Shown here in pieces: positions 253 to 34,351 of a stretch of DNA of 64,000 nucleotides. The stretch covers positions 116,779 to 180,778 of IMG/VR virus record IMGVR_UViG_3300021255_000109. One strand, written 5' to 3'. The notes below the pieces were generated by a model. It was not told where the DNA came from, searched no databases, and was given only the letters and a program-made list of their open reading frames with translations. The DNA is from a virus. Lineage: Duplodnaviria; Caudoviricetes. The translations under genes were made by a program, and so were the position numbers. Each line of letters begins with the position of its first letter. The first letter of the stretch is position 1.

Positions 253-1312
253 AACAACCGCGGGGTGGAAAGGCACATTCGCTTACGATAAATTAATACA
301 GATATTAGTCTGGATGATTACCGAGCCTGAGAAAGCCTTTGTAATGGGTGGAACCTGGCGTATCCCTGTGTTAGTAAAATTATTGGATAAAAACTTCTTG
401 CAAGATTTGAAGAAAGACGGTACCTATAATGATGCTTCTTTTGATCGTGAATATGAAAGTAAGTGGTCTGGTACTATTGAAGATTCTTATTTCAATGGCG
501 AACAATTTGATCGTAATAGAATTCTTAAGCAGCCTGAGTATGAATACTCCGGTCGATCAAGCGCAAAGAGTTTTTATGTTATCTCAGTCGATGTTGGTCG
601 CAAAGGTTGTCAATCTGTTGCGTGCGTTTGGAAGGTAATCCCACAGAGCGTGGGAGCGCATATTAAATCATTGGTAAATATTGATACTCGTTCAGATGAA
701 CATTTTGAATCACAAGCAATTTGGATAAAAGGGTTACATTATAAATATAAAGCTCGCCGCACTGTCATAGATGGTAATGGCGTTGGTCTTGGCTTAGTTG
801 ACTATATGGTAAAAACGCAAATCAATCCAGATACAGGAGAAACATATCCTGATTTTGGAGTTTATAACGATGATGAATCTTACTATAAAAAATATCGTAC
901 CGATAGTTGCGAACAAGATGCTTTATATATTATCAAGGCTAATGCGCCGATTAACACCGAAGCGCACTCTAATGCTTTAGTTCAATTATCTTCTGGAAAA
1001 GTAAAATTGTTAATAGATGAACGTGTTGCAAAACAAAAATTATTAGGAACAAGAATGGGTTAGAATATGACCCCTGAGCAAAGGGCAGATTATTTAAAAC
1101 CATTTACCTTAACTTCCATATTAAAAGAAGAAATGATGAATTTGCGGGAAGAAAATGAAGGTGTAAACATTATTTTAAAACCTGCAAACAAAAGGATTAA
1201 GAAAGATAAATTTTCTGCATTTGAGTATGGATTATATTATATAAAAGAAGAAGAAGAAAATAAGAAGCGTAAGAAAAAATTTAATGCTAAAGAATGGCGT
1301 TTATTTAATTAA
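253..1312 (+). CDS. terL: Terminase large subunit, 3' exon (one in-frame TAG=Gln at 1061)
   Basis: TTAGWKG coupling motif right after the intron, FDREYESKW, RNase H-like nuclease motifs (ISVDVGR, VIDGNGVG, KKDKFSA); ends TAA 1310-1312; first gene of the head module. Confidence 0.9.
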
Positions 1313-1324
1313 GGGAGGTAGATT

Positions 1325-1681
1325 ATGCGAGCTTCAAGAGGAGAAATAAAGATCGAAGAAATTTTAATAGAATCTGGATTACATTTTGAAGAAGAATATG
1401 CATTTGCGGATTTAAAGAGTACAAGAGGTATACCTTTAAGATTTGATTTTGTTGTGTTTGATGATGATGGTGCTATTGATTTTATAATTGAATATCAAGG
1501 CAAATAGCACTATGAACCTTCTGCCAAATTTGGCGGTAAGCGTGGATTTTATCAACAACAATATAATGATACGCAAAAAAGACGCTTTTGCGCTTTGCAT
1601 GATTTTAAATTAATTGAAATCCCTTATACAGAAGAAGATTTAATTTCTTATGATTATATAATGAAAAAAGCAGGATATTGA
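1325..1681 (+). CDS. Small PD-(D/E)xK / DUF559-Vsr-like endonuclease (118 aa)
   Basis: GGGAGG RBS; S.GE..I, LRFDF, IEYQGK[TAG=Q]HY matching the EYxGxQH motif, D..KR.FC, LIEIPY; ends TGA. Confidence 0.75.
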
Positions 1682-1692
1682 GGAGGTATAAT

Positions 1693-3336
1693 ATGCCAGA
1701 AAACCAAGATCGTTAGTCTCAAATCCGAGATAAAGGTTTTAATATACTCAAAGCTCCTACTTCTGCTACAGAAAGTTATGCTAAATTAAAGATTGGTACA
1801 AGATCATTTGATGATGCAGTTCTTGATTTACATTATTATGACAAGCTTGATCGTCGTGAATTCAGAAGCAAAGAATTCGTTATGACAGCATTAATCAATA
1901 ATGATGTAGAACTATTGCGTGAGATATCTCGATTTTATTATAAGACTAATGGTATCTATCAAAAGATTGTGAATTATTTTGCTTCTATGTATAGATATGA
2001 CTGGTATATGGTACCTGAGATTTTAAACGATAAAGCAAACAATGATAAAATCGTAGATGAGTTCATGAAAACACTAAATTATTTTGATGCAACTCACATC
2101 AAAAAATTGTGTGGTGAATTCGCATTGAGTGTTATTCGTGATGGTATATATTATTGCTATGCCTACGAAGGTGCGCATAGTATTTTGTTTCAAGAATTGC
2201 CTTGGAAATGGTGTCGTTCCAGATACAAAATTGCGGGAGTGCCTGCAATAGAATTTGATATGTCGTTTTTCGATACTAAATTTTTAGATGTCGGATATCG
2301 TATGCGCGTTTTAGATTTATTCCCACAAGAGTTTAAAGAGGGATATATCTTATATAAAAAAGGTAAATTACCACCAGATGATATTTTAACAGATGGTGTA
2401 AAAGGTAAAGGCCGTTGGTATTTACTTAAGCCTGGGTGCGCTTTTTAGATTGGCTTATATGGCTTAAATGGTTTACCATTATTTGTAAATGCGATTCCCG
2501 CACTTATTGATTTAGATATGACCCAAGGTATTGATAGACAAAGACAATTACAACAATTATTAAAGATTATTGTTCAAAAGTTGCCTCTCGATAAGAATGG
2601 TGACTTAATCTTTGATATTGATGAAGCAAGAGATATTCATAATAACGCAGTTGAGATGTTACGCAATGCTATTGGCGTTGACGTTTTAACTACTTTTGCA
2701 GATATTGAAGGCATTGATGTGTCTGATGCTAATAAGACTGTTACTGATGACTCATTAGGCAATGCTGAGCGCACAGTCTATAACTCAATGGGTACGTCTA
2801 AAAACATCTTTAATACAGATGGAAATTTAGCTCTTGAAAAATCAATTTTAGCAGATGAAGGTTCTTTAAGAGATTTAATTCTTCAGTTTGAAAACTTATT
2901 TGATTCTCTTGCGCAGATGCGCAGTACAAATAAGAAGAAATGGAATTTTAGATTCTATATGTTGCATACAACATAGAATAATTATTAGGCGTTATCAAAA
3001 TTATATAAAGAGCAAACTCAGATAGGTTTCTCTAAGATGTTACCTTAGATTGCTCTTGGTCAGAGTCAAAGTTTTATTCTTAATAGTGTATTATTCGAAA
3101 ATGAAGTGTTGAACTTGAGTGCGATTATGATCCCACCGCTTATGTCTTCTACTATGAATATTGAAACTATTCAATAGGTAGGTAGTAAAGGCACAAAAGC
3201 AACATCAAATCAACAAACTTAGGGCAATACAAGTCAAAGTAGCACTTCTGGAACTTAGAATAATGTAGGAAGACCAAGCAAAGAATAGGACCAATTAAGT
3301 GAAAAGACTCTAAAGAATAAAGAAACAGCGAGTTAA
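1693..3336 (+). CDS. Portal protein (547 aa with TAG=Gln)
   Basis: AGGAGG RBS; ORF fragments 1882 and 2518 share one frame joined by TAG codons; position between terminase and protease; size; C-terminal GRP motif; ends TAA. Confidence 0.8.
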
Positions 3337-3350
3337 AAGGAGATATTTGC

Positions 3351-4682
3351 ATGAACACAAGCATTAAAATGAATACTCCTTGTGAGTTAATCAACGTAAC
3401 TCCTTTAAACCCACTTATTTCACATTGTTAGATTAAAGTTTGTTACGTTGGTGAATAGCCAAATAGAAATAATAGTATTATAACTAAAGAAGTGGCAACT
3501 AATATTGCACAATCATTGCCGGGTAGCCCAATTGTGGGTTATTATAATAAAGACAATGGAGATTTTGAAGAACATACTCGTGTTATTGATATTGATAAAG
3601 AGACAAGATCAATTGTTTGGAAAGATCAAACTAAGCCTTATGGTTTTGTTGATTTAAATGCGCAGGTTTGGTTTTAGGATTATTTAGATGGTGATACAGT
3701 TCATACTTATCTTGTAACAGAAGGTTACTTATGGACTGGGCAATATCCTGAAGCGCAACGTATTATAGATCAAGGCAATAATTAGTCTATGGAATTAGAC
3801 ACAAAGACTTTGCGTGGCTCTTGGACACAAAGTGATAATAGCAATATGCGCTTTTTTATTATTAATGACGCTATAATTTCAAAATTATGTATTTTAGGAG
3901 ATGATTTCGAACCTTGTTTTGAAGGTTCTCAAATCACGAAATTTTCTTTTGAAGATGGATTTAATGAAAGATTATATTCGTTAATGACAGAAGTTAAAAA
4001 ATTGAAAGGAGGCAACCTTACAATGGATGAGAATGTAAAGAATGAGGCAGGTTTACAAGCTACTGAACCTACTCAAGAAGAGAATCCTAATCCAGAGGTT
4101 CCTGCTCAGGAGAATGAACCAGCTGAAAATGAGCCTAAGCCAGAAAATAATGCGGCTGCCCCTGAAGCGACCGCAGAACCTGAACTTATTTCTGAACCAG
4201 AACCAGCTGCTGCAGAACCTGAAGCTGATCCTGAGCCAGAAAATCAGCAAGAAAATGAGGGCGAAGGCGTTCAATTTAGCTTAGCAGATTTTCAAAATCT
4301 ATAGGAAAGTTATTCTAATCTTTAGAATGAATTCAATGGACTTCAAACTCAATATAACGAACTAAAGGAGTCTTATGACGCTTTAGTAGAGTTTAAAAAT
4401 ACAAAAGATAGAGAAGATAAGCAATCTATGATTGATAGTTTCTATATGCTTGGCGAAGAAGATAAGAAAGACGTTCAAGATAATATAGATAAGTATTCTC
4501 TTGATGAGATTGAAGCAAAACTCGCAATTATTTGTGTACATAATAAATTAGATTTATCAGGTAAAACAAATAATGAACCAGAAACTACATTTAGTCTAGA
4601 AAATGTAGAAGACGATTCCGAAAATACTAACATTCCTGCATTAGTCAGTGTTCTTCGGAAAAACAGAAAAAACGAAAATTAA
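3351..4682 (+). CDS. Prohead protease / scaffold fusion (443 aa)
   Basis: PNRNNS, PIVG, KPYGFV, GYLW..YPE, QSMEL, LCILG...PCFEGS protease-like region, followed by an acidic E/P-rich linker and coiled coil; fragments 3492, 3789 and 4428 are in one frame. Confidence 0.75.
4023..4682 (+). CDS. Nested in-frame scaffold protein (internal start)
   Basis: AAAGGAGG at 4005-4012, 10 nt before an in-frame ATG at 4023, at the protease/acidic-domain boundary. Confidence 0.6.
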
Positions 4683-5422: not shown

Positions 5423-6553
5423 ATGTTATTAAAAATTGAAGATCTTGTAAAGCTTGCGAAGATCGCAGCTCATGCTAATCCCTCTACTCCTGTTGCTTAC
5501 AGCTTTAATGGAGAGAACTTTAGCTATAATGAAGTACAGGATACTCTTCGTGCTCAATTTGAAGAGTTAGCTCCTGACTATCGCGGATATAGAGAAAACA
5601 AGAATACAATTTTCCGCATTATTGAAGAGACTCTTTCTGAAATCGTTCCAGAGAGAATTAAACAAAATTATGAGCAGTTTGCTGAAGTTAAGCACTATGC
5701 TCAAGGCGATAAGCCTATTTTCCGTAGAAAGACAAACATCCACAACCGCAATCGTGGTAAGCAGTTCGTGACAAGAGTCGGTCTGGCTGGTATCTATGAA
5801 GTTTGGAAGCTTGGTTCAGCACAAGAGAGCTTCGAAGTTCCAACTTCTGCTATTGGTGGTGCTGCTCAGATTGGATTCGAAGAGTTCCTTGACAAGCGTG
5901 TTGATTGGGCTGAATTAGTAAATATCCTTTATGAGGCAATTGATGATTTAGTATTTGAAGAAATCGGTGCTGCTCTTGGCGAGGGTATTAATCAGCTTCC
6001 TGCTGTAAACCGTGTAGTTGCTAATGATTTTGATGAAGCTACTTTTGATGCTTTATTAAATCAAGCAAAGATGTATGGTAATGTTACTATTTATTGTACA
6101 AATGAATTTGCTGTTAAGATGATTCCGAAGGAAGCTTGGAGATACACTGAAGCTATGAAGGATGAACTTTACAGAACTGGTCGTTTACAAGGTTATAAGG
6201 GCGAAAGAATTGTTGTTCTTCCTAACGCTTATAAGACTGCTTTTGCACAAGAGAAGGTTATTGATCCTAGCCTTTGCTGGATTATTCCATCTGGCGCAGA
6301 TCAAAGACCTGTAAAGGTTGCTTTTGAGGGTGATCTTTATACTAATGAATTTGAGAACTATGACTGGTCTCGTGATATTCATATGTACGAGAAGGTTGGT
6401 GTTTCTTGCATGATGGATAATGCTATTCACGTATACAAAGATACTAGTTTATCTAAGACTGGTGTATTCAACTTAAAGGATAATGTTACTAACCCTGTTG
6501 ATATCAGAACTCCTGAGGATGGTGGATCGAACCAGGGAAACCAGTAGCCGTAA
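5423..6553 (+). CDS. Major capsid protein (376 aa; ends ...GNQ-Q(TAG)-P-TAA)
   Basis: AAAGGAG RBS before ATG 5423; size, synteny and high-expression codon usage; stop TAA 6551-6553 under code 15. Confidence 0.85.
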
Positions 6554-6930
6554 CAGCTTCTAAACTTGCTACCGCACCTGATGATGCGAACAAAGCTACA
6601 TCTCAAGCTAATCAGGACGCTGTTACAGTAACACAAAATGGTAACACTATTACCATTACCGGTAGCCTTGATGCATTAAATAGTTTTGCTTCTACGAATC
6701 CTGCACAAGGCAGTGGTAAGTGGATTGGTTTAGATTTAAATACTGGACTTGACACAATTGTTGGTGCTACATGGGGAGATTCTTATAAATTGACTCAAGA
6801 AGATGTTGATGAAGCAGCTTCTGTAGGACTAGGTGCTGGTCACATTATTTTCTGGACTAAGGCCGAAGATTTACCAAAGACTATTAAAGTAAACGGTAAG
6901 TCTTACACTGTTGAATTTGTTGAAGGCTAA
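6535..6930 (+). CDS. -1 frameshift C-terminal extension of the major capsid protein (~130 aa, beta-rich, possibly Ig-like)
   Basis: Slippery heptamer G GGA AAC at 6535-6541. The -1 frame is open (PVAVTASKLATAPDD...IKVNGKSYTVEFVEG) to TAA 6928-6930. It has no ATG or RBS and an in-frame TGA at 6514 just upstream. Confidence 0.85.
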   Translation, partial: GKPVAVTASKLATAPDDANKATSQANQDAVTVTQNGNTITITGSLDALNSFASTNPAQGSGKWIGLDLNTGLDTIVGATWGDSYKLTQEDVDEAASVGLGAGHIIFWTKAEDLPKTIKVNGKSYTVEFVEG

Positions 6931-6963: not shown

Positions 6964-7003
6964 TAAGGGGAGAATGGGGAAGTTCCCCTTCTCCCCTTAT
7001 TTT
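6964..7003 (+). terminator. Intrinsic terminator after the capsid genes
   Basis: TAAGGGGAGA...TCTCCCCTTA hairpin followed by TTTT. Confidence 0.75.
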
Positions 7004-7031
7004 CAGTTAAGAGAAAAAGGAGATTGAAACA

Positions 7032-7631
7032 ATGGCAACATTAGAAAGATATTTTTTAGTTACAAATAGAAGCGCAAGTAGAGTGCATTATTCTGTGCCT
7101 GAGCTTGGAATAAAAAGTCGTGATTTCCAGCCAGGAGAAACTAAGAGAATTAGTTATTCAGAGCTTGAAGGTTTAAGCTACTTACCTGGTGGCGTAGAAC
7201 TTATTAGAGATTATTTACTCGTAAAAGATGAAAAAGTGCGCGAAGAGTTTATTGGTCATACTGAACCTGAGTATAATATGACTGTAGAAGAAGTTAAGGA
7301 ATTGATTCTACACGGATCGCAAGATGAGTGGCTAGATTGCTTAGATTTTGCGCCAGAGGGCGTAATTGATTTAATTAAGGAATTAGCCGTATCACTACCT
7401 TTAACAGATACTCGCAAGATGGACGCATTTCTGGAGAAGAAGGGTACTAATTTAGCCCGCATGATCCAGGCTAAGAGAGAGGAAGAAGCAGAGCGCGCAG
7501 CCGCTAATCAAGAACAACAAACAACTCCTCAAAGAAGAGTTAAACCTGCACAAACAACTGAAGCTGTAAATACTGTAAGAAGAACCTCAGGATCAAAATA
7601 TAAAGTAGTAAATAAAACCGCACAAGAGTAA
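7032..7631 (+). CDS. Hypothetical head-associated protein (199 aa)
   Basis: AAAGGAG RBS; intact ORF after the capsid gene. Confidence 0.7.
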   Translation: MATLERYFLVTNRSASRVHYSVPELGIKSRDFQPGETKRISYSELEGLSYLPGGVELIRDYLLVKDEKVREEFIGHTEPEYNMTVEEVKELILHGSQDEWLDCLDFAPEGVIDLIKELAVSLPLTDTRKMDAFLEKKGTNLARMIQAKREEEAERAAANQEQQTTPQRRVKPAQTTEAVNTVRRTSGSKYKVVNKTAQE

Positions 7632-10299: not shown

Positions 10300-11036
10300 T
10301 GGCAGATCATAGATTGGCTTTGATGTGCGGAATTGATATACCAATTCCGGAGTGCAGATTGATCGCCCATTAGCCAACATTAAGTGATATAGCATACATT
10401 GGAGAAACAGATTTTTTTGTAGGGATGCAATGTTTATGTATCAGTAAAAGTATGATCGTTTAGGACGAATCTCTTCTAGCAGATACGAATAATTTTTAGA
10501 TATTTATGACAGTAATGTCTGAGAAAGAGACAAAAAGTAAGAAAGATGCAACTTTATAGGTATTGCAATTATTATTTCCATCATATAAGATAGTGTTTGC
10601 CCCACGTTCGTTAATATTTTCTTCCAATGGTGAGACATTAACTGTAGATGAAAATAATTTCGATGCCTTACAAGATGTAATGAAAGAAATTTTTTGTTTT
10701 AATAATGGTCCAATGGACTAGTAGGCATTTAACCCTGGCGACGCTAAGTCACGTGAAATTGCGAACAAGATCTTAAGAGGTCGGTAGCGCGTCGCCGCGC
10801 AGTAGTATGGTAAAGAAGGATCTAATGGTAGCGCTTTTAGTAAGTACATTTCTATTCTTACTATTGGTACTCATACTATAGACATTCACTGTGCTACGAA
10901 ATTAACTATGTTTTAGTTGTATGATTTAATTGAAAGGTATTACTTATATGTTAATTGGGATATGGATGTCCGCACTCGATTAGCAGGAGGTAAACCTGAA
11001 TCTAAACCAGATGATTGGATGAAAAATATTCATTAA
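10299..11036 (+). CDS. Hypothetical tail-module protein (245 aa; absent from ORF track, 9 TAG)
   Basis: TAATG coupling to the previous gene; open to TAA 11034-11036 when TAG=Q; H[Q]PT, LTMF[Q]LYD, LAGG...W. Confidence 0.7.
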
Positions 11037-11059
11037 AAATACACAAGGAGGAATAGACC

Positions 11060-12076
11060 ATGAAATTTGGCGTACGCGAAATTTGCGATGTCGTTTTAAA
11101 AGCAAAAGCGGCTCAAAGAGTAGGTAATAAGATTTTTTATAAGAATGAGCCAGTTATCTATTTCGATACTTTAAAGACTTCTAGTTTAGAAGGTGCTGCT
11201 ACTACTGTATATGCACAAGGTGGTCGTGGTAACTCTCGTCTTATTGCATGGGAAGGTGAGCGTACTGTTACATTCACTATGGAAGATGCTTTAATTTCCC
11301 CTGCTGGATTTGCAATTCTTTCTGGCGCAGGCTTAATTGATGCAGATAATATTCATGAGCATCATAAGATTAAGCAGCATCAAACAGAGCAGACTGATGC
11401 AGTTGTTACTGAGTCTACTGGCGTTTATGGTGAGAGCGATTACGTTGTTACCGGTGTTGATATTTATCTTCAAGAGAAGCCATTTAATAAAGCTGGAGAA
11501 GATTATATTTATGTAATGGCACTTAATGATGGTGAAGTTGTTACTGAGCCTTATATTCCTGCAGAGGTTGCAGAAGAGCCAGAAGATGAAGGCGAGTTCG
11601 CTGGAATGTATAAGATCTCTTTAAAGAGTGATGATGATCTTGAGTTCTTCTACAATGGTGCTGTTGTTCTTGTAGACTACTATGTTGAGAGAACCGCAGG
11701 AGCACAACAGATTGAAATTACACCTGATAAGTTTGGTGGAAATTATTATCTTGAGGCTTCTACATTATTCCGTGATACTAACGGTGTTGATTTACCGGCT
11801 GAATTTATCATTCCTAACTGCAAGATTCAGTCTAACTTTACTTTCACAATGGCTCCATCTGGAGATCCATCAAGCTTTACATTCACAATTGACGCATTCC
11901 CTGACTATACAAGATTTGATAAGACTCATAAGGTTCTTGCCGCTCTTCAAATCATTGATGTAAATCGTGAGGAAGCTCTTATTACTAGACGTCATACTCG
12001 TCCAGGTGTGGCTGAAGTTGTAAAGAATGAAGCTGAGCGTGATAGAACTTGGACAGAATATGAGCCAAATAACTGA
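11060..12076 (+). CDS. Major tail (tube) protein
   Basis: AAGGAGG RBS; FGVREI.DV, GGRGN..LI.W, F.FTM...GDPS.F.F..D; no TAG; position before the tape measure gene. Confidence 0.75.
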   Translation: MKFGVREICDVVLKAKAAQRVGNKIFYKNEPVIYFDTLKTSSLEGAATTVYAQGGRGNSRLIAWEGERTVTFTMEDALISPAGFAILSGAGLIDADNIHEHHKIKQHQTEQTDAVVTESTGVYGESDYVVTGVDIYLQEKPFNKAGEDYIYVMALNDGEVVTEPYIPAEVAEEPEDEGEFAGMYKISLKSDDDLEFFYNGAVVLVDYYVERTAGAQQIEITPDKFGGNYYLEASTLFRDTNGVDLPAEFIIPNCKIQSNFTFTMAPSGDPSSFTFTIDAFPDYTRFDKTHKVLAALQIIDVNREEALITRRHTRPGVAEVVKNEAERDRTWTEYEPNN

Positions 12077-14456: not shown

Positions 14457-17400
14457 ATGGCAGATAGAAAATTGTCTATTAGTCTTTAGTTTATTTCTGA
14501 TACTCAAAAAGCAAAGGCTGAAATTAAAGATTTACAGAAGTCATTAAATGATCTTTCTTTAGGTAAAAATACAAATAAATCTTTACTTACTTAGGAAATT
14601 AAAAGTGCTACAGAGGCTGCAACTAAGTTGTAGATTGCATTAAACAGTGCTGTTAATGTTAATACTGGTAAATTAGATTTAAGTAAATTTCAAGAATCTC
14701 TTAAAGCAAGTAATATGTCTTTAGCAGATTATTAGAGAGAATTATTAAATTTAGGTCCAGATGGTGAACGAACATTTAGACAGCTGGCTTAGGCCATTAC
14801 TGATGCAGAAGTACCATTAAAAAGAACAAATTCTGTCTTAAAAGAATTTGGAGAGACATTATCTAATACTGTAAAATGGCAAATTTCATCTTCAGCTATT
14901 CATGGTTTTATGGGAGCCATTTAGTCAGCGTATGGATATGCACAAGACTTAAATGAATCTTTAAATAAAATTCAGATTGTTACAGGTCATAATATAGATT
15001 ATATGAGCCGCTTTGCGGACCATGCCAATAAAGCAGCTTAGGCTTTAAGTTCAACTACTTTAGATTATACTGATGCTGCATTGATTTACTATCAATAGGG
15101 TTTATCAGATAAGGAAGTGCAAAAACGTACTGATATTACTTTAAAGATGGCTAATGCCGCAGGCGAAAGTGCGCAAACTATTTCACAACAATTAACGGCG
15201 GTATGGAATAACTTCGCAAAAGGCGGAGAAAATCTTGAGCATTTTGCAGACGTTATGACTAAATTAGGTGCAGAAACTGCATCAAGTACTTCTGAGATTG
15301 CTGATGGTCTTGAAAAGTTTGCTGCTATTGCTGATACTGTTGGTTTATCTTATGAGTATGCGGCTTCTGCTTTAGCTACTGTAACTGCTACAACACGTCA
15401 AAGCGCCGATGTAGTTGGTACAGCTTTTAAAACTTTATTTGCACGTATTCAAGGCTTAAATTTAGGTGAGACTCTTGAAGATGGTGTCGATTTAAATAAA
15501 TATTCACAAGCTCTTGAAAAAGTTGGTGTTGACGTTTTAGATGCTAATGGCAAGTTAATTGCCATGGATGATATTCTTGATAGACTAGGTGAGCGTTGGG
15601 GAGAACTTACTAATGCTTAGCAGGTAGCATTGGCAGAGACTGTTGCTGGTACTCGTCAATATTCTCAAGTAATGGCTTTAATGGGCAATTGGGATTTCTT
15701 TAAAGAAAATTTGAATCGTGCATAGAATTCTGATGGAGCATTACAAGAGCAAGCAGATATTTATGCACAAAGTTGGGAAGCCGCTAAAAAACGTGTATAG
15801 GCAGCAGCAGAAGGAATTTATAAAAGTTTAATTAACGATCAATTCTTTATTGATTTAAATAAAGGATTAGAAAAAGCTTTAAATGGAATTAATTTATTTA
15901 TTCAGGGAATCGGTGGAGCAAAAGGTGCAATAACAGCATTATCTGGTGCTGTATTAACTTTATTTGGTGATAAAATAGCTGCCACTTTATCAAGCACCGC
16001 TTATAATATTAGTATGACATTTAAATCAGCACAAGATAGAATGATACAAGTAAAACAAGAAGTTAATCAATTAGTTGATAGTTATTATAGCGATATTGAT
16101 ACTTCTGAAAATGGTAATTTTAGAATATTTGCAGATGCTATTAAAGCAACTACTGCTGAACAAATGGCATATATTCAAAATGCTGAAAAAATGTCAGAAG
16201 CTGAGCGTCATATTAATGAAAAAATAATTGAACGTCATTAGTTAATGGTATCTAATATTGAATAGTTAACTACAGAATTAGCCGCATTAGAGAAAGCAAG
16301 CAATAATTCTGATTAGAGATTTAATTTTGCAACTCAAAAAGTAACAGATGAAGATATGCTTAATGCTAGTAAGCTTAATGCCAGTGAGCTTAATGAATAT
16401 TTAGGTCTTTTACGTGAAGAATTTAATGAAGTAAATTCGCAAGTTAGTGAATTTGCAACATTATCAGAAGTTGCATCAGCAGGTGCGGATCATTTTAAAG
16501 ATAAAACAGTTGATGGATCTAAAGCTTTAGAATATTTAGATTAGTTATTAAAAGATAACGGCATTGATATTAATAGTATGTCAAATTCAGCTTAGAGTGA
16601 GTTTAGTAAAATTAAAGATATTTTTGAGAAAGTTGCTAATGGTGGAAAATCAGTTGGAGATGCATTTACTGAGTTGACAGCAAAAAGTGTTGAACTTGAT
16701 TCAGAAACTTCAATGTTATCTGAAAGAATGGGAAGACAAATTGCTGATATGGAAAATTCCGTAACAACTACAATGAAAGATGGAGATGCAAAAACAAGAC
16801 TATTAAACGCGATTAAACTATTATCACAAAGTCATCAAGAATATAATGAAAAATTAAGAGAGATAAAATAGGCTTATGCAAATTTAGCGGCTGGTACTGA
16901 AGATCATGCGAAAAAGATGGAAGCAGTATAGAAGTCTTATGTAAAAGGATCTTAGGCTGTAGTGGCTTTTGGGCGTTCTGTGACCACTGGTATGAGTGCG
17001 GTTAATTCTGTTGCATCATTGATTAATACTTGGAAAGATGGACAAAAAGATTTAGGAGAGTAGATTGCTGCTACTACTTCTGCTCTTGGAATGTTATTAC
17101 CAATGGCAGTTACTTTTATTCAAACTTTAAAAACTATGAGTCCAACTTTACGCGTGATTTCTATTGCATTAACGGCAATTTCAGCGATTGGAACAATAGT
17201 TGGTAATATATTTAAAAGTATCAAAGATAATAGCCCAGAATAGCAATTAGAAAATTTAAAATAGGCAAATGATCAATTAAGTGAAAGTATTGCAAATGTT
17301 GATGAAAAGTATAAAAAATTAACTGATCATTTTGATAAATATAAATCAATTACTAAAGCTTTGTCAGAATGTCAAAAAGGTAGTGATGAGTGGTATGAAA

Positions 17401-20400
17401 GTTTAAAAGATGTTAATACAATTACACAAACTTTATTAGATGATTTCCCAGAATTAATGAGATATGGTTTTGAATATAATGAAGAGTTAGGCCGTTATGT
17501 TGTTGCTGAATAGTCAATAGAATCATTACAGTCTTAGTTACAAGCACAAAAAGATTCATTAGAAATGGCTAAATCAATTAATTTAATAACGCAAGGATCG
17601 TTTCAATATGATAAAGACGTATAGACGGCTGAATCAAATTATACAAAGAATTTATTAAGTTAGATTAATGAATTATATGGTACGAATAATTTTGCATTAG
17701 AAAAATTAAATTCATATATGCAAGCGGGATGGATGAATAATGAAGATTTAGTATACCTAATTGATCATTTTAATGAATTAGTGCAGTTAGATAATTATGA
17801 TTTGGCTGATAAATTAACAGATACTTTTGATGGATTAACGTCGGAAACAGCGTCAATACTTGGTGATAGTCTTTTAGAATCTTTTGAAACTAAATTAAAA
17901 TAGTTTGGACAACAACGTATGACTGAAGTCGCCAAGCAAGAATAGGATAATATAGATAATCAATTATCTATTTATGATAAACAAAAAGGCGATTTAGAAG
18001 TATTAATAGCAAGAGAACGAATGGCATTAGGAGAAGAACTTGGCAAATTAGATACTCAAGAAAAATTAGATAATTATGTTAATAATCATTATGCAGATAC
18101 ACAAGCATTGATAAAACAATCTAATGCAGCACAAGTAACTAATGAAGAGGCGGCAAATGCTTAGTCAAAAGCTAAAGTATCTTATAATGATGCAGTAAAA
18201 GCTTATCAAGATGTTGAAGATAAACGCAATCGTGATTTTTATTTATTATATTTACAGCGTGCAGCTGATATGATGGCAGGTATGCTAGCAGATAGAGATA
18301 TTGAAGATAGAAATCAACAATTTAAAAATGATCGTAATCGAGAGTTAAGAGATCAATTGCTTGAAGTTAATGAATTGAGTAATGATGATGCAATAAAAAA
18401 TTTAGGATCTGACGTAGCAGTAGTTGTGTCTTAGATGAAGAATATAGGCGGCGCGTATACTAAATATGTTAATATGTTATCTCCTGAAGCATTAGAGGCA
18501 GATCGTTTTTTAATAGAACAAAACTATGCTGATGAACTACAAAAATTATAGTAGGATGTTGATATTAAAAAAGAAGAAATGGATGCAGCTAATAATGTTG
18601 CAGAAACAGCAAAAAATAATTATGAAGAAGCTACAGCCGATACTATTCAATCAAAAACAGAAAAATTAATTAGTTTAACTGCTCAACTGGGAGAAGTATA
18701 GAATAAAATAGTAGATTTGGAAGAAAAACAAGTAAAATTATATACACCACAATAGGCTAGTGCTAAAGGAGTTACAAGCACATACCAAGATGAATTAGCA
18801 GTAGCTTAGAATAAATAGATTACAACAGGAGCTGCTGCCGTTTCAACAATGGTAAGTATTTTAGACGAAGAACTTGCTACTACTTATGGGAAAAATGAAA
18901 CATTTTGGTCAAATGCATATTTAGCCATTCAAGATGATATTCTAGATCTTACTGATAAGACATTGAATGAAATTACTGAAGGCAATGAAGATTTATAGAA
19001 AAAAATTGCTGAAAGTTATTTATAGACTTTAAATGAAAATTATACTTTTACAGCAGTTAAATCTGATGGTACTATTGCATATAAAGATGAAAAAGGTGAT
19101 AAGAAAGAACTTGAAGTTGGAGATAAAAATTATATAGGATTACAACAATATGCTTTAGCCATGACAAAGTAGTATGATAAAGAAACTGGATTATTTGATG
19201 AAGATAAATTTTTAGATTGGTTAATGCCATCAGCTAAAAAGCAAGCTAATGCTATAGAAACTGCTTTAACAGGACAAATTGAATCAGCTACAAGAGAAAG
19301 TCTTGAATATATAATTCGTTTAAATGAAAGTGGAAATAAATTAACTCAAGCTACTTATAAAGATATTACAGATAGCTATGCGGCGCTTAAAGATTTAAAT
19401 ATTACAGGATTAGAAGAATTAGATTATCAAGAAAAAAATAAGTTACAACATATTCGTGGCGATACTTATAAGATAATACATCAAATAAATGATGATATTG
19501 TTGATATGTTTGGAGAAAATGTATCTGTTGAAGTCTTATCATACTTTTAGGATTTATTTGACTTTACTGATAAGTTACCAGATGATGGTGTACAAAGCGA
19601 GAAATTAAGAACATATTTTAATTCGATTTTAAGCACACTAAACGAAGAAGAGTAGTTAGATTTTCTTAATACTTTTGCAAATATAGATTGGACTAAAGTT
19701 ACTTCAGTAGAATAGATGTAGGAAATGTTATCAGGATTGGGTGTTGATTATGAAAAATTAAATATTGATGTTGCAACTTTTGTAGAAACAATGATGGGAT
19801 TTAATTATTTACCTACTACATATGTTGAATTAAATGATTTATTAACAAACATAGGAAAAACATTAGAAAAAATAGAATAGGGAGATATTATTGATGATGA
19901 TCAATATGCAAAATTAAAAGAATTATTTGGTGATGATGGAGATTTACAAAAATTCTTTTGGAAAACAGCTAATGGTTGGATGCTAACAGGGAATCCTGAA
20001 GAACTTGAAGATATGTATATTACAGAGGGCATAGAAAAATTATAGAAGATGAGAATTGAGCAAGCAGCTAGCGAATAGATTGTTGTAGATGACAAAGGTA
20101 ATATAATAAGCGGTGTAAACTCGGAAGAAGTTAGTAATTATTTACATGATGTATTAGGATGGGATGAAGAAGCTTTAAATAATAGTGAAGCACGAGAAGA
20201 TGCTGCAAAAAAATTAGTTGATGCATCTGAAAATATTAATATTAATATAGAAGACGCAGAACGAGCATTGTTATCTGTTGTTGATTCTTCAGATCGTTTA
20301 ACTGAAGTATTAGAAATTTTTGAACATAATGGATACGAATTAAGTAAAGGTACTGATCCAAAGGCTTTTGAAACATTTTTACGTGCGCGAGAAGCATAGA

Positions 20401-23400
20401 ATAAAGCTGGAGAAGGAGCTGGAGAAGGATTTGCTGGTACTAATAACACAGATGCTTTTTCATTAGAAGGATAGTCTTATGAAGGACAAAAATCAATTAT
20501 TTCTAGTTCATATGCTGGTGCAAAAGATTTACGCACTATTGCTACATTAAATGATATTTTTGCGCAAGAAACATAGTCTAATTTAGAAACTGCACAATCA
20601 AAATTTAATCAATATGATTAGGCTCGTCGTACTGGTGCCCAAATTCCGGCTGAAGAAGCAGAATAGATTTTAGCAGATTATAATAATGCATAGCAATTAG
20701 TATTAGATGCTAAAGCTTTAGCTAAAAAGGCTATGGATGATGCAGTTGAGGCTATAAATAGTACGACTGATTTTGCTTATGCGTTACAACAAGGATTAAT
20801 AACAAGTGATAATTTTACTGTAATTTATGGATAGACAATATCTGAATTGAAAAAATTTGATGAAGTACAAGAGTTAGAAGATATGATTGCAGATGCCGCA
20901 GAAAAAAATCCTGAGATTAAAGCAACTTGGGAATAGACACAGACTAATAGTGTTGCAGCTTATGAAATGATTTTACAAAATACTCAAGACAGTATAAAAA
21001 CGGTTGAAGATGCTGAAGCATTTTATAAATACTTTAAAGATAAGGTTGGTGAAGGTAATGGTCTTTTAAATTCTGCAATGCAAAATATATTAAAAAACAT
21101 TGAAACATCAATCAAAACAGTAGATGATTATGCTACTTTAAGCGAAGAAATGCTTAGTATGCTGTAGAAAAATGGATTACTTACTTAGGTACAATAGAGA
21201 GTAGCAGCAACATTAAAGGATTTACCTTCATTATTTGAATGGGCGAATGAGAATAACATAGGCTCAGAAGGATTAGATTAGCAATTTTTAGCTCTTGCAG
21301 GATCAGCTAAATCTGGTGATGAAGTTAAAGCATTTAACGGAAAAGTAAGTACAGAAGCTTATAATCAGGGTTTATCTGACTTTGGTACAAAACAAATGGA
21401 ATCTGCAAAAACTTGGGACGAAGCATATAAATTAATGAAAGAATATAATGTCGAGTTAAATGAAAAAACTATCCCTGGTTTATTAGAATTAACTACTACT
21501 TTATCTGCTTTTGATACTGCGGCAGAGGTTTTGACAAATGATTTAGGAGAAGATATTACTGCGTCTGAAACTTGGTTTTTAGAATATTCTAATGCATTAA
21601 CAAAAATAGCAGAACAATATACTCATACTTCTTTAGAAACAGAAAATTATAAATAGGCAGTTGACACTTTGGGTGATGCTTAGAAAATATTAGCTGATAA
21701 AAATGCTGAGCTAACAGAACAATATAGTCGACATATACAAATTAATGGTGAATTAGTAGATCTTGATGAACGTGCTATTAAGAATTCACAAGATTTAAAT
21801 TCATATATTGATGAACATACAAAAAAAGAACAAGAGCTAGTAGAAACGTTAAAAGAAAAAATGGAAGTGGCTCAAGCAGAATTACGTGCATCAATTTTAG
21901 CAGGTGAAGGAGCTAAAAAATATGGTTTAACTGCTGAAGATGTTGAAACACAAGCAAAATTATTGGCAGAACAAAGTAAAAATGTCGCGGAAGGCTTTGA
22001 ATTAGATATTGAGTCAGCTACACGTATGGCTGTTGCAAATCAGCGTTTAAATCGTGGTATTAAAACTTTACATGATAATTGGGAAGAATGGTCTGATATT
22101 TTAAATAATACAGATCATGGTATGCAAGATTATGCAGAAACTTTAAATGATGCTCGTGATGCTTTAGCAGACATGGTTGGAGCTATTGATGCTGATGCTA
22201 TTTCATTAGATTTCTTAGATAATACAACTGATTCTGGACGTCATCATTTGGAATTAATGGGCTTAGCCGCACAAGGTAATGTAGATGCAATTAATCAACT
22301 TGGTATTGCTGTTGGTTATGCCGCTATCGAAATGCTTGAATTTAGTGATAATACTACTCAAGTCTTTGATGAAGTGTGGTCAAATTGGTCTATGACTGCT
22401 GAGGAATTTACTGGTTATAAAGATACAGTATTGCAGGGTATTACATAGTTAGAAGAAAGCGTTATTAATGGAACAATGACTGCCGGTATGGCTGTAGATG
22501 CTATGGGGTCAGATTGGGTTGAAGCTTTAAACCAAATGGCTCTTGCTACTGGTATGTCTGTAGAAGAGATGAATGCTTTTTTAAATGAGTTAGGTGTATA
22601 GGCAAAAGTAGAAGTACATGGTGAAAAAACCAAAATGCAAGTACCTACATATGAAGAATATTCTAAATCTGAAATAGTTGAACCAGAAGAATATGGTCGT
22701 CATATTATTGGTCGTAATGACGCTGGTGAACCAGAATGGGCAGATTATTTGAAAAAACCTGCAACCTGGAAAAGAACTACTTGGACAGTGCCTGGACCAC
22801 CAACAGAAGTAGAAGGATATCAAGAAGTTGCTTAGATTTCTACTGTTGATAATCCAAAAACGCCATTAGTTACATATACTGGAACAAGTGGTGGAAATGT
22901 CGCTGCACCATCTCCGAAATCTACTGCTTCTAGTGGAGGAGGCAGATCTTCAACTCCAAAAACACCGAAAGGCTCTTCTCCTAAGTCATCTAAAGGATCA
23001 GGTGATAAAAAGAAAGAATAGAAAGAAAAGAAAGATTTTGAAGATGAGTTAGATCGTTATCATGTAATCCTCGCGCAAATAGATGACCAAAAACGTAAAT
23101 TAGATGAATTAGGAAAGGCAAAAGATAGAGCATATGGTAAACAAAAAGTAGATAATATGAATAAAGAAATCAAAGCGCAAAAAGAATTAAATAATAAAAC
23201 ACAACAATATATTGATGAAATTAAAGATTATTTAAAACTTGATAAAGACGCTATGAGTCCATATGGAGCTATTTTTGATGCTGATGGTAATATAACTAAT
23301 TACGAAGATATTATGAAGCAACAATTAGCTATTTATAATGCTGCTATTGATGCTTATAATGCATCTGCGCAAGAAGAAGCTGATAAAGAACGTCTTGAAG

Positions 23401-26228
23401 CCGCCGAAAAAGCTTATGAAACATTTAAAGAAAAATTAAAGCAATATGAAGATACTAATAACTTATTGCAAGAGCAATTAGTAGAATTACAAGATGGCTT
23501 AAAACAAGTATATGATGATGTAACTGCTAAGAATGAATATATTATAGATTTAAAAATAAATGTTAATGATAATGAATTAGATTTCTTAGATTATTTACAA
23601 GATAAGATTGATAATTTTAATGATGGCGTTAATGAGGTAAGTGAGAAATTAGCTAATTTAAATGATGAAACTGGTGCGCTTTTGAATAGATCTGATATTC
23701 ATAACGAAGGCATTTCCAGAACTCTTGGTCATTATTTAATTGATCAACTTGGTAAGAATGAAGATGAGGCTGCTGCTTTAATTGAGAAGTTTAAGACAGG
23801 AACATTAACTGATGAAGATATGAATTTATTTGCGGGAATCCCTGAAGCTGAAATGCAAAAAGTTCAAGAATATAAGAAAGATCTTCTTGATGATAATAAG
23901 AAGCTCATGGATAATATGCAAGAAGTTGTAGATACTGTAAATGATTCATTTAAACAAATCAGTGAAGACTTAGATGATGCAATGAAAGATATTGATCGTT
24001 CTACTGATGCGCTTGAGCATTATGGCAATATGATTGATATAGTTGGTGCGGATTTCCTTGGTGTGACTACGGATATAGCTAATGCACTCGATCAGGCTGA
24101 AGTAGATGTTGCGAACGAAAAGGTTGCGGCAACGAGAGCTAAATTAGATGCATTAAAAGATGATTATGCTGAAGCTGAAAAATTATATCAAGATGCTTTA
24201 GACAATAACGATGCAGTTTTGGCAGAAAAATGGAAAAACGCATTGAAGGAAATGGACGATGAGGTAAATGGTGCAACTCAAGACTTCCATCAGGCTTGGG
24301 AAGATGCTTTACGTTCAGCGCAAGAAGCATTAGAGGCTATGCTTGATCGTGTTAAGAATGATGCTCTTGATGCTATTGCAGGTAATGTTCCATACAGTCA
24401 ATTAGCAGATTTAATGGATCAACAAGAAAAAGTAGATGATAGATTCTTAGATGAATATGAACAAATCTATGAAATGAGTAAGTTAAATCGTGATATTAAT
24501 AACTCTATTGGAGATGCTGATAATATCAAAGCTAAAGAGGCTTTAAGAGATCTTTAGAAAGAAATTAATAAACTTCAAGAAGATGGTAACGAGATGAGCC
24601 AATATGATTTAGATAATGCTCGTAGAAAATATGAATTAAAACTTGCAGAATTAGAGCTTGATAATGCTATGAATATTAAAGATACTGTAAGATTAAGTAA
24701 AGATTCTGAAGGCAATTGGTCATATATCTATACCGCTGATGAAGAAAAGGTAGCTCAGGCAGAATAGAATTATGAAGATAAACTTTATGCTATGCAAAAA
24801 GCTAATGAAGAATATATTAACAATATAGAGAACGAATTGGCCGGAGTACATGAAGAAATGCTTAATAAGATTGCTGAGATTCAAGCTGATTTAACTCTTA
24901 CAGAAGAGCAAAAAGCGCAATTGATTCAGCAAACTTATGATTTCTATACTGAATAGGCTTCTTATTATACTGGAGAGCTTGGTAAGGCTATTGATAATAA
25001 TAAAGAATTATATGATATTGATTGGACTAATTATTCCGCAAAAACAAGGAAACAAAAGATTGGCGAAGATGATTTAACTGAATATATCGCTGATAATTAT
25101 GGTTATAGGCTGGGTAATTTGGATAATTATATTACGGATTTCAATAATACAATGCTGAGTGATATTACAGGTTTTGACACTCTTGATGGTTTCGAGCAAA
25201 ATGCGCAGGCGGCTACTGAAAGTGCGGTTGCAGCTATGAACGCCGCTCATGACTAGTGGGCGGAGAACACAGAGACAACGATGCAGTTAGCTGGCACTTC
25301 TGTTGGTACTTTTGCTGAGGATATGATGAATGATGTTGATCAGACTATTGTACCTAAGGCTATAGAAGCTAAAGATGCTGTTGTAGATCTAGCAAATGCA
25401 TCTGTTGATGAATTTGATAAACTTGTAGGTCAAGCGCAAACCTGGCAAGATACTTATAGCACTTTAATGCAAGGTATTATTGATAAAAATGAATTGGTTA
25501 TCCAGTCTATCAATGGTGTTGATGAAGCTATCTCTAAATTAGAGGAATCTGAAGACGAGAATGTTTTAGGCCAAGACACTACTAATAAGATTTCTGAATC
25601 TGCTAATGCGGGTGCGGAAGCAGCTGCTACAGCTGCGGCAGCGGCACAAGCTGGAGCTGATTAGGCGGCAGCAAATGCGGCTCAATGGGCAAGAGTAATG
25701 CAGGTTTATAACTTAATTAATAGTGGTGCTGTTGGTAATCATGATACTGGACGTGTTCAAAATTTATTAAATCGTGGATATAGCCAGCAAGAGTATTCAT
25801 TAGGACAGCAGTTAATCAATATGGTTTATGATGCTGGCCTTGGTGGACGTGGTATGTCCATGGATGCTGCAAAGGCTGCATTAGGATTTGACTCTGGCGG
25901 TTATACTGGAGATTGGTCTGGTGCTAATGGACGTCTTGCTTTATTACATCAGAAAGAAATTGTTCTGAATGAAAGTGATACTGCAAACTTATTAAACGCA
26001 GTCGATATGGTGCGTTAGATTGCTAATTCTATTGACTTAAATGCGAAAGCAACTGAGTTTAATTTAGGTAATTTATCTGCGGCCGTGGGTATGCTGGGTG
26101 CGCGTTCTAGTGTAGACTAGAATGTAACAATTACCGCAGAATTCCCGAACGTGACCGACCGCAATGAAATTGCTGAAGCCCTTAAAACTTTAGTCAATGA
26201 AGCATCTCAATACGCTAATCGCAAATAA
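14457..26228 (+). CDS. Tape measure protein (~3923 aa with TAG=Gln)
   Basis: AAAGGAG RBS; all + strand ORF fragments from 15117 to 26018 share one frame; TP901-type core (TRQSADVVGTAFKTLFARIQG, AGTRQ); helical A/E/K/L-rich; hydrophobic segments near 15.9 and 17.1 kb; C-terminal FDSGGYTG...LHQKEIVLN; ends TAA. Confidence 0.9.
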
Positions 26229-26337: not shown

Positions 26338-29300
26338 ATGGCAGAAACTAACTATAATGATATTCTGTGTTAGGCTATTGATACAATAGTTCAATAGCGA
26401 ATTTCTAATCTTACTTTTGATTAGACTATTATATGTACAATAGTTGATGACACAGATGCAAAAAATGGTCATTATATCGTAACTGATAAATCAGTTCGTT
26501 TTGATGCTTATTCCGAAAACACAGAATATGTTACAGACGATGATGTCTATGTGACTATTCCCAAAGGTGATTATAATTAGACTAAAGTTATTATTAGTAA
26601 ATATACAGCTGATAATAATTTAGATCCTTTAGTTTATATTAAACCTTTGGACTAGATGTTTATTATTACTGACGATTTGGTTCAAAAAGGCCAACCAAAT
26701 GTCATATCAGCATCTATTTTGGCTAATGGGCGCAAGGTGTCTGAGAATAGAAAGACAACTACCCCTGGCCGCACAAAAATAATTTGGGAATATTTATTAA
26801 ACGAGAGTAATAATACTGATATTAAGAATAATGCGATCTTTGATACTCTTGGTATTCGCGCAAGTTTTAAATGCGATTTATTATCTACTTATAATGTGCG
26901 CCAAGGACATTATGGATTGGCGATTACGTTATATTCAGATATGAATCCTGAGTCAGGCACAGGAAGTGTAACTGAGAATACAGTTTTATTTGATTCGGCA
27001 GAAATGTTTGGCAATCCGTATTCTTTTGTTACTTTCTTTGAGCAGCAAAAGATCATTGATATTAGTAAATTAAATAATATTACAAAGATTAGTATTGCAT
27101 TATATTAGAGTGGAGATTTTCAGTATACTGAGTCTCTTGAAGCAAAAGATATGAAAGCATTGCCTTCAACATATGTAAACAGTGAAGGCGCAACTGAAGA
27201 TTTAATGGATAATATCTTTGTTGGTAATGTTGAGATCTATTTTGGTATGAATATTGCTAACGTTTCAGATAATACGTTTTCTATCTATTGCAGTGATCAT
27301 TCTACTTTTAGTATGGTAAAAGAGTAGATTGATGAAAATTATAATGTAAAAACTATTTTTCCTATTTGGTTTAATAAAGAGCCAGATACTAATAAATACA
27401 TTGGATATTCTGATGGCGTTTATAGAACATATGTAGATGCTGACGATCCAAATAGAATAGTTGGTGCTTAGTATTTAGAGGATAATTATCGTGCCAAGAA
27501 AGACTATTATGATAAAGGTGCCAGCTTAAATCAATTAGCATTAGAAGAGTAGGGTATACCTCCGGTTTAGCAAGTTTTATAGATATATGCGTACGCGCAA
27601 GACGCTGTAAAATTAATGACTAAATTGTATAATTTATTAAATAATAATTTAAAAAATATTTGTGATAAATTGTTAAGAGACGTTTCCGCTTATCAAACTG
27701 ATGAACAAAAAACAAATTCTAATACTGCATATTAGATATTATTTAGTAATAATCAAGATTATGCAATACTATTATCAGGATTAAGTGAAATATTGGATGA
27801 AAACAATGCTAATGGTTTTATGACTACTGTTACTGATATTTTAAAAGAATATGGATAGGTATATTTGGACTTAGCGCAATGGTCAGATTTATCACAACCT
27901 TATGGTGAAAATGGCTACATGTATAGAATTAACAATGTTTATTCTCTTGCGGCAAGTTAGATTAATGATTTACCTACTTATGTAGATGATTATTTTAGAT
28001 CAATTCGAGATAATATTCCTAATTCAATTGCGGCAATATATGATGCTTGGAATAATATGCAAAAAACAATTTTACAAGATTGCTTAGATGTGGATAATTA
28101 GATTAAAAATTTAATTGGTTCATGGCAATCAAATCAAGTTGAAGCTCCAAGTATTGGCTATGAATTTAAAGATTTAAATACTTTATTCCAACAAGGCGGA
28201 GTATAGAGCTATGCTGAATCAAAAGAGATATTCGAATAGAAATATCAGAATAGATATTGTATTTATTGGTATAAATATGTTGAGAATTATTATGATGCTA
28301 ATGAGCGTTATATGCCGAGCGGATGGCAACGTTTATTAGGATATGAAAATATAGGATTGCCAAAAGATTGGGAGCCTGGTAATGATGGAAATGATTACTG
28401 GGTTGCTAAATCAAATGAACGTGTAACTGTAAAAATTGGTGATCCAACAGTAGAAACAGAATAGATATAGGCTATTTTAATTTATAACCATGAAGTTTTT
28501 AAGAGTAATATTTTAACTTTTAAAAATGAAGAATAGGTAATTGATGAGAATACGAAAAGTGCGGTTACCGGTCTGTGGATCGCATTGACTGATCAAACCG
28601 ATGAACAACCTGATACATATTGTTCTAAGGAAACTTATCAATTATATGGTATGACAAATATGTTAATTAACTCAGCCGAACGGTACCAGCGCCGCAAGCT
28701 TCGCGCACGTTTTACTGGGCTAGATCAAGATGATAATTATTTAAAGAATAATTGTACTATCTATTGGTATATTCCTATTCATAGTACAATGCTTGATTGT
28801 AATCGAGATGAGTTAATCCAAGCAGGCTTTTCTTTTTATGATCCTAATGTTGATACTTTGCCTTCTGCGCCATATGGTAATAATTATGTAGAAGGCTATT
28901 ATATGGTATATAGATAGATTGCCGCAGATACAGACGCAAACTTTTTATCATCCACAGAAATTTTTTATTAGATAAAGAATTATTTTATGCCAACCGCAAC
29001 TAATAATACAATTAGATGTCGAGTGGTAAAGAATCGTCAATATGTCTATGATTCGGAATAGTTCTTTACTTTTGCTTCTTATGGTAGTAATGGAACAGAT
29101 TATACTTTGTGTATTTTCCCAAGTACAAATCAAGCTGCAGTTAAGCAGGATTAGCAACTGCCTTTATCAATTGGAGTCTATGATTACAACAACGACTTTA
29201 TGGAAAAAGAAAGCCAAAATATTTAGCTAAGTATTTTAAATGGTTTTTCATATAACTCAGAAGGTGTTAAAACTGATCAATCTGCTTATTTTATTACTAC

Positions 29301-33964: not shown

Positions 33965-34351
33965 ATGATGACAACTTTAACAAATAACGAAATTTATAAT
34001 TATGCTAATGCTTTAGCGCAAGAATTTGGACAAGAATCTGAAGTAAAGTTTCCTATTAAGGTAAATTTTTATTTACAGAAGAATCTTCAGGTTTTGATTA
34101 GTCTTGCTCAAGATATTGAGAAGGAAAGATTGGCAATCGCGCAAGAGTTTGGTACATTAAATGAGGAAACTCAGCAGTATGAAATTCCTAACGAGAATAT
34201 CGCTGCTGCTACAAATAAATTAAATGATTTATTTAATTTAACTCAGGAAGTACAGATTTATAAAGTTGGTCTTGATGCTTTTAATGATATGGATCTTACT
34301 TCTAATCAAATGCAAGCATTATTGTTTATGATTAAAGATGAGGAGGAATAA
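33965..34351 (+). CDS. Hypothetical helical protein (128 aa), possible fibre chaperone
   Basis: AAAGGAG RBS; intact ORF, no TAG. Confidence 0.7.
   Translation: MMTTLTNNEIYNYANALAQEFGQESEVKFPIKVNFYLQKNLQVLISLAQDIEKERLAIAQEFGTLNEETQQYEIPNENIAAATNKLNDLFNLTQEVQIYKVGLDAFNDMDLTSNQMQALLFMIKDEEE

Follow-up and report, generated by a model that had tools for sequence, protein, structure and literature searches.

Coat proteins extended at their C termini by ribosomal frameshifting are established in phages T3, T7, A2, A118, A500 and PSA, and the T3 extension is a folded immunoglobulin (Ig)-like domain (PMC5009743). Lactobacillus phage A2, Listeria phages A118 and A500 (-1) and PSA (+1), all with Gram-positive hosts, obtain a longer capsid product by frameshifting at the 3' end of the gene, and the same phages also extend their major tail protein (PMC5009743). 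Ig-like domains were reported at the C termini of phage capsid and tail proteins, in many cases encoded in another frame and added via frameshifting (Fraser et al. 2006/2007, cited in PMC5009743). Here, a stretch of 64,000 nucleotides (nt) of phage DNA (the window) was analyzed, namely positions 116,779 to 180,778 of IMG/VR record IMGVR_UViG_3300021255_000109, which form the 3'-most part of a 180,778-bp contig. An earlier note, made from the letters of the window, had proposed that a hidden -1 frameshift adds a beta-rich domain to the major capsid protein, giving an isoform of about 500 amino acids (aa) analogous to T7 gp10B. We found that comparative evidence strongly supports this proposal: a conserved -1 frameshift site, G_GGA_AAC, is predicted, with good confidence, to yield a capsid isoform of about 500 aa that carries a folded display domain.

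In the zero frame, the capsid gene reads from ATG 5423 to TAG 6545-6547, CCG and TAA 6551-6553, and its 3' end is ...GGA TCG AAC CAG GGA AAC CAG TAG CCG TAA. The sequence behind it is occupied by a -1 frame that is open from 6517 to TAA 6928-6930 (137 codons) and overlaps the zero frame by 37 nt (6517-6553). Both properties that the earlier note had ascribed to this frame, the lack of a start and a capsid-like codon usage, were recovered. Between 6517 and 6789 it contains no ATG, GTG or TTG, and the sole such codon is TTG 6790, 46 codons before the end. With a codon model trained on TAG-free structural genes of the same phage, it scored +0.62 bits per codon, compared with 0.55 for the capsid gene and -1.13 and -1.73 for the remaining two frames. 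Substitutions relative to four close relatives (loci L107, L108, L109 and L084) were mostly in the third codon position (5/5/18 against L107). The entry point that had been singled out, G_GGA_AAC, is in the correct phase and is the sole X_XXY_YYZ heptamer within the overlap (table 1). Because the strong intrinsic terminator comes after the extension and not after the capsid stop, the capsid gene and the extension lie on one transcript. A terminator 3' of the extension was also seen in relatives, and in the extension-less locus L081 it stands directly 3' of the capsid stop.

Table 1. Positions of the features of the frameshift locus and of other long or TAG-free genes in the window
Feature	Position	Strand	Remark
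Major capsid protein gene, zero frame	5423..6553	+	376 aa with TAG read as Gln; Pfam YonB (PF27364), HK97 fold
TGA closing the -1 frame upstream	6514..6516	+	5' limit for any shift
GGTGG, weak Shine-Dalgarno-like stretch	6521..6525	+	9 nt 5' of the heptamer; inside conserved GGTGGATCGAAC (Gly-Gly-Ser-Asn)
Slippery heptamer G_GGA_AAC	6535..6541	+	Correct phase; contains codons 372 (GGA) and 373 (AAC)
-1 extension	6538..6930	+	130 codons and TAA; short linker (K/N-PVAVTA), then domain of about 120 aa
In-frame TAG, sole one in the capsid open reading frame	6545..6547	+	Most likely a Gln codon
Intrinsic terminator, hairpin and T-run	6967..7004	+	3' of the extension, not of the capsid stop
Giant open reading frame with TAG as Gln	14457-26228		3,923 codons, 71 TAG
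Giant open reading frame with TAG as Gln	26338-33939		2,533 codons, 48 TAG
Genes without any TAG codon	4698-5405; 7032-7631; 33965-34351; 42866-44833

Relatives were collected from IMG/VR and from metagenome contigs; the capsid and an alignment of the extension served as queries, and 186 loci were obtained. Capsid and extension were both present in 100 loci, in every one of which the extension was in the -1 frame (100/100); an in-frame or +1 arrangement of capsid and domain was found in 0/100. The 66 distinct junctions comprised 50 with a canonical heptamer inside the overlap, 2 with G_GGG_TAG, which is a P-site slip adjoining an amber codon, and 14 with no recognizable slip site. The heptamers, of which a junction can hold more than one, were G_GGA_AAC (24 occurrences), A_AAC_CCT (17), G_GGA_AAT (8), A_AAT_TTT (1) and A_AAC_CCA (1). 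A heptamer was present in the last 11 codons of 43 of the 59 extension-bearing capsid genes but of only 1 of the 62 extension-less ones, and the background rate of in-frame heptamers in the bodies of these 121 related capsid genes was 0.0020 per codon. No start codon occurs between the opening of the frame and the conserved domain in 38 of the 50 canonical junctions, and in L088, L045, L090 and L151 the overlap is merely 10-13 nt, essentially the heptamer and the stop. Conservation of the heptamer in related phages had been named in the earlier note as a check, and it was borne out by these counts. Different slip sites replacing one another at the same place are what selection for frameshifting predicts.

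Under the mechanism that we propose, most ribosomes would finish the capsid gene in the zero frame late in infection and release the 376-aa protein, whereas a minority would slip back one base on G_GGA_AAC and read the -1 frame to its TAA. At the heptamer, tRNA-Gly would leave GGA and re-pair with GGG, and tRNA-Asn would leave AAC and re-pair with AAA. The predicted trans-frame product is 502 aa long (372-373 capsid residues followed by 129-130 from the -1 frame) and would join the whole capsid fold, through a flexible linker rich in Gly, Ser and Asn, to a beta-sandwich of about 120 aa. This long form would co-assemble at low copy number, so that some copies of the domain are displayed on the capsid surface; display at full occupancy may not be tolerated, and frameshifting would set a low ratio. 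The arrangement resembles T7 10A/10B and T3 gene 10, where a -1 shift likewise occurs in the last capsid codons and gives a minor extended form that co-assembles. The T7 heptamer, in contrast, is G_GUU_UUC, and its extension is short and not a domain; moreover, the present capsid is an SPbeta-like YonB protein of a 180-kb phage using genetic code 15, and no distant 3' stimulator was identified here. The slip sites of A2, A118, A500 and PSA differ from this one as well.

Several observations weigh against this mechanism. The fold of the 79 nt after the slip site has a minimum free energy of -12.7 kcal/mol, which does not stand out from shuffled sequences (z = +0.28), and no common downstream hairpin was found among nine lineages folded over 79 nt each. 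The GTAGC/GCTAC stem that had been suggested as a stimulator does pair; being no better than chance and not conserved in the nine lineages, it was rejected as evidence of one. To our knowledge, X_XXA_AAC is outside the most efficient heptamers in bacteria, and the frameshift yield may therefore be low. Moreover, 14 of the 66 junctions have no recognizable slip site, and three of these have a start overlapping the stop (among them L011, TAGTG, and L162, ATGA). Twelve canonical junctions also have an ATG or GTG close by, either as TAATG/TGATG or a few codons downstream, so that separate expression of the domain is possible in some lineages. Finally, clades mostly keep the heptamer class of their ancestor, so that the 66 junctions do not count as independent trials.

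The nearby start codons raise the question whether the domain is produced on its own, as a small protein of about 13-14 kDa with a decorating or accessory function, by termination-reinitiation or from a non-canonical start near the capsid stop. A start does overlap the capsid stop in L084, L109, L117, L121, L122 and L123 (TAATG/TGATG) and in L099 (TAATG); L011 has TAGTG after GAAGGGGA, L162 has ATGA, an ATG lies five codons downstream in the L041 group, and gene callers place a 128-aa gene at the junction in the start-bearing relatives. In the window itself, the sole candidate is ATC 6526 in the -1 frame, which comes after GAGGA at a spacing like that of a Shine-Dalgarno sequence. ATC start codons, though, are extremely rare, and this one is absent in the A_AAC_CCT and G_GGG_TAG classes. 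The -1 frame of the window has none of the usual starts before 6790, as is the case in the 38 heptamer-bearing junctions counted above, and all of these start-bearing lineages, the L041 group included, but L011 and L162 retain a slip site. Moreover, Met in these lineages occupies the Ile position of the conserved linker GK-L-(I/M)-x-V-T, and therefore looks like an Ile-to-Met change rather than a start. The earlier note had counted an own start of the extension, together with a failure to detect a fusion protein, as evidence against a frameshift; such starts do occur in some lineages, for example L084 (TAATG), which keep the heptamer, while most lineages, including the window, are start-less. 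Most stop-overlapping starts thus seem incidental, although in L011 and L162 the domain may by now be expressed separately through coupling to the capsid gene, and for the present phage a free domain is improbable. We consider it slightly less probable still that the extension is a silent relic here, its frame intact and functionless and frameshifting at G_GGA_AAC negligible. In about 45 of the 51 heptamer occurrences, a stop stands directly 3' of the heptamer, which is the commonest shared feature of the junctions; the window is without it, its TAG being 1 codon and its TAA 3 codons away, and downstream folding gave no stimulatory structure. Yet all 130 codons of the frame are undisrupted, its codon usage is like that of the capsid gene, substitutions relative to all four close relatives are biased to third positions, and L107 and L108, which share the 3-codon spacing between heptamer and stop, keep the domain at 92-95% identity. 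An origin of the frame change at the nucleic-acid level, be it an indel from assembly or sequencing, a polymorphism in the DNA or slippage during transcription, is very improbable. The same -1 arrangement recurs in 100 independently assembled loci from many samples with differing junction sequences, and the runs in GGGAAAC are just 3 nt long, far below the length of homopolymers prone to transcriptional slippage (PMC5009743).

The Shine-Dalgarno-like GGTGG that the earlier note had compared with the dnaX stimulator is indeed present upstream of the heptamer. It belongs to a nearly invariant GGTGGATCGAAC(T/C)(C/A)GGGAAAC, common even to capsid genes that are 52-58% identical. The dnaX-type signal likewise has such a stretch about 10 nt 5' of an X_XXA_AAZ heptamer. 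Unlike that signal, GGTGG is a poor match to GGAGG, doubles as Gly codons, and is accompanied by no downstream hairpin of the dnaX kind; it is kept in the G_GGA_AAY class and absent from the A_AAC_CCT class. A stimulatory role of GGTGG is therefore suggestive only, being confounded with the Gly codons of the linker, and the motif may simply travel with the cassette described below.

The role of the TAG near the heptamer depends on the genetic code. The source of the window is an SPbeta-like gut/rumen phage of Firmicute type that reads TAG as Gln (genetic code 15). The standard code splits the late region into short open reading frames, which merge into long genes when TAG is taken as a sense codon (table 1); a reassignment of TGA to Trp did not improve the open reading frames of this region. 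The genome has 33 tRNA genes, all on the minus strand at about 59.0-80.4 kb of the full contig, including one with the anticodon CUA. Moreover, the TAG codons of four conserved genes in the window pair mainly with Gln in relatives, several columns being >95% Gln. The code assignment follows from these three lines. The contig termini overlap by 107 bp, which suggests a complete circular assembly. The amber-suppressor tRNA(CUA) lies outside the window (contig 61228-61316, minus strand). Its 89 nt include a long variable arm, and its neighbor is a tRNA-Ser(UGA) that resembles it; although such features are unexpected in a tRNA that inserts Gln, the TAGs of the window align with conserved Gln.

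The earlier note was right that the capsid gene holds a single TAG, but the special role as a stop that it gave to this codon did not stand, and its idea of three C termini is weak. In the nearest extension-bearing relatives, the codon aligns with CAG: the junction is GGA AAC CAA CAG CCG TAA in L108 and GGA AAT TCA CAG CCG TAA in L107. On this basis and that of tRNA(CUA) and the TAG-Gln alignments, the TAG was rejected as a meaningful alternative stop in favor of an ordinary, recoded Gln codon. Since the phage reads TAG as Gln, the zero-frame product most likely ends ...GNQQP at TAA. Elsewhere in the code-15 family, TAG stands in the A site at slippage, as in G_GGG_TAG (L020, L024) and G_GGA_AAT_TAG (L111). 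It is conceivable, if rather unlikely, that the codon after the slip site is itself a signal in this family: competition between the suppressor tRNA and release factor 1 would slow amber decoding at the slip site, and slow decoding could set the number of decorated subunits. Some support comes from these three relatives and from the frequency with which heptamers abut a stop (about 45 of 51 occurrences). If true, the decoration of the capsid would be tied to the code switch of the phage itself. Any such effect in the window would be indirect at best, the TAG being one codon further on and the stop having moved away in this lineage.

The gene upstream of the heptamer encodes an HK97-fold major capsid protein, by its fold, its family label and its position in the head module. 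Its YonB label is a precomputed Pfam assignment; the family takes its name from a gene in SPbeta, a Bacillus prophage. An AlphaFold 2 model of the capsid protein (predicted local distance difference test, pLDDT, 72) was matched by Foldseek to encapsulins and phage capsid proteins with probability 1.00 and E values down to 4e-8; the matches included YSD1, Douge, Sf14 and the HK97 prohead, with modest TM-scores (0.3-0.6). The gene follows a terminase-like gene, the portal gene (phrog_2739), the gene of a YonD_N protein and that of a 235-aa protein, and Bacillus phages have distant homologues that carry the annotation major capsid protein. Disorder is predicted for the final 27 or so residues, in which Gly, Ser and Asn are frequent. 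Other in-frame tails were found in extension-less relatives. The capsid of L081 (3090-3185) ends in in-frame NTTPDSG repeats, and those of L001-L004 and L006 (about 4080-4250) have an in-frame tail of 40-50 aa ending ...K(T/K)YY.... Thus, the capsid C terminus appears to be a hotspot for alternative appendages.

Structure prediction of the extension, which had also been proposed, gave a confident beta-sandwich with two helices (AlphaFold 2, pLDDT 93.4), in line with the beta-rich domain first suggested. Eleven aligned extension sequences were 52-63% identical and had 29 invariant columns. The 130-aa extension matched no Pfam family at the cut-off, including Ig, Big and FN3; PHROGs and PDB sequence searches gave nothing significant, and no significant match was found by Foldseek (PDB, BFVD; E >= 0.01), VIA-align wide or ESM Atlas features. 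The best structural matches were Ig-like N-terminal domains of Bacteroides glycan-binding proteins and hydrolases (3hbz, Z 5.3 with 79 residues aligned; 8aa2_T, Z 4.4), at Z values below the level that separates true relatives, so that the modeled domain weakly resembles Ig-like or carbohydrate-binding module (CBM)-like folds. The Ig-like domains of Fraser et al. are mobile C-terminal beta-sandwiches that probably bind weakly to surfaces or glycans, a likeness shared here; the present domain differs in having no Pfam Ig, Big or FN3 match, a structural likeness that is only weak, and two helices.

The domain appears to be an unannotated family, for which a profile search gave 362 cluster representatives. 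Tandem arrays occur in cell-surface proteins anchored by S-layer homology (SLH) domains, such as P0205 with 11 copies and three SLH domains, and P0126, which carries the domain, is named an Oscillospiraceae S-layer-homology protein. In other phages, the domain is fused in frame to the C terminus of virion proteins of 450-490 aa belonging to phrog_2729 / PF27173 (e.g., P0139, P0152). A2, A118, A500 and PSA also extend a tail protein; in contrast to those phages, the tail-side copies seen here are all fused in frame, none of them by a frameshift. The window has its own gene of this family (11015-12073), which encodes a virion structural protein (tail tube according to the earlier note) without the domain. 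In L104, a 239-kb IMG/VR contig of an unrelated large phage, a protein of >800 aa (673-3120) carries the domain internally, in the same reading frame. Judging from its sequence relatives in SLH surface proteins and phrog_2729 virion proteins, the domain is most likely an adhesion or glycan-binding module with a role in display. In-frame fusions of capsid and domain, the classical support for frameshifting, were looked for, and none was found among 82 longer domain-bearing proteins or in the 100 loci, the existing fusions being to phrog_2729 / PF27173 proteins instead. The absence of YonB capsid fusions fits a need for sub-stoichiometric display.

The extension has been gained or lost at least nine times over well-supported branches of a quick capsid tree, in which the A_AAC_CCT and the G_GAA_CCG junctions each form nearly single clades. 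Identities to the window are uncoupled between capsid and extension: L113 is 55% identical in the capsid and 80% in the extension, and L119 87% and 66%. L121 and L086 likewise show this uncoupling. Moreover, a 21-nt stretch, GGTGGATCGAACTCGGGAAAC, is common to the distant capsid genes that are only 52-58% identical. The uncoupled identities and this shared stretch suggest that recombination moves the linker, slip site and domain jointly, as one mobile cassette. A clade of six loci (L171, L174, L176, L180, L181 and L185) has a capsid with a -1 extension and an overlap of 13-16 nt, with neither a start nor a heptamer, and its conserved junction is G_GAA_CCG_TAA. The shift may occur here at a non-canonical site of an as yet undescribed type; the sole plausible re-pairing would take tRNA-Glu from GAA to GGA, with the Pro codon CCG and then the stop coming next. 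In L170, L172 and L175, the junction is G_GGA_CAT_TAA, which permits a P-site slip only.

The principle of a minor capsid isoform with a display domain made by frameshifting is already established. What is new here is the capsid family, from SPbeta-like, code-15 gut/rumen phages, the unannotated domain family, and the wide range of junction variants that occur naturally. A capsid frameshift in this group is mentioned neither in the literature on SPbeta nor in that on phAss-1, a related code-15 phage, whose capsid has no extension. The capsid family is large, with more than 6,000 YonB homologues in metagenomes, and comes from abundant gut/rumen phages of about 130-200 kb, in which current gene calls leave a gap after the capsid gene or place a truncated hypothetical gene there. 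The series of junctions, from heptamers through P-site-only and amber-adjacent sites to overlapping starts, suits the study of how frameshift signals evolve in Firmicute phages and of their interplay with stop-codon reassignment. Its occurrence on a putative tail protein and on SLH proteins of bacterial cell walls, besides phage capsids, makes the domain a candidate for phage adherence to host or gut surfaces.

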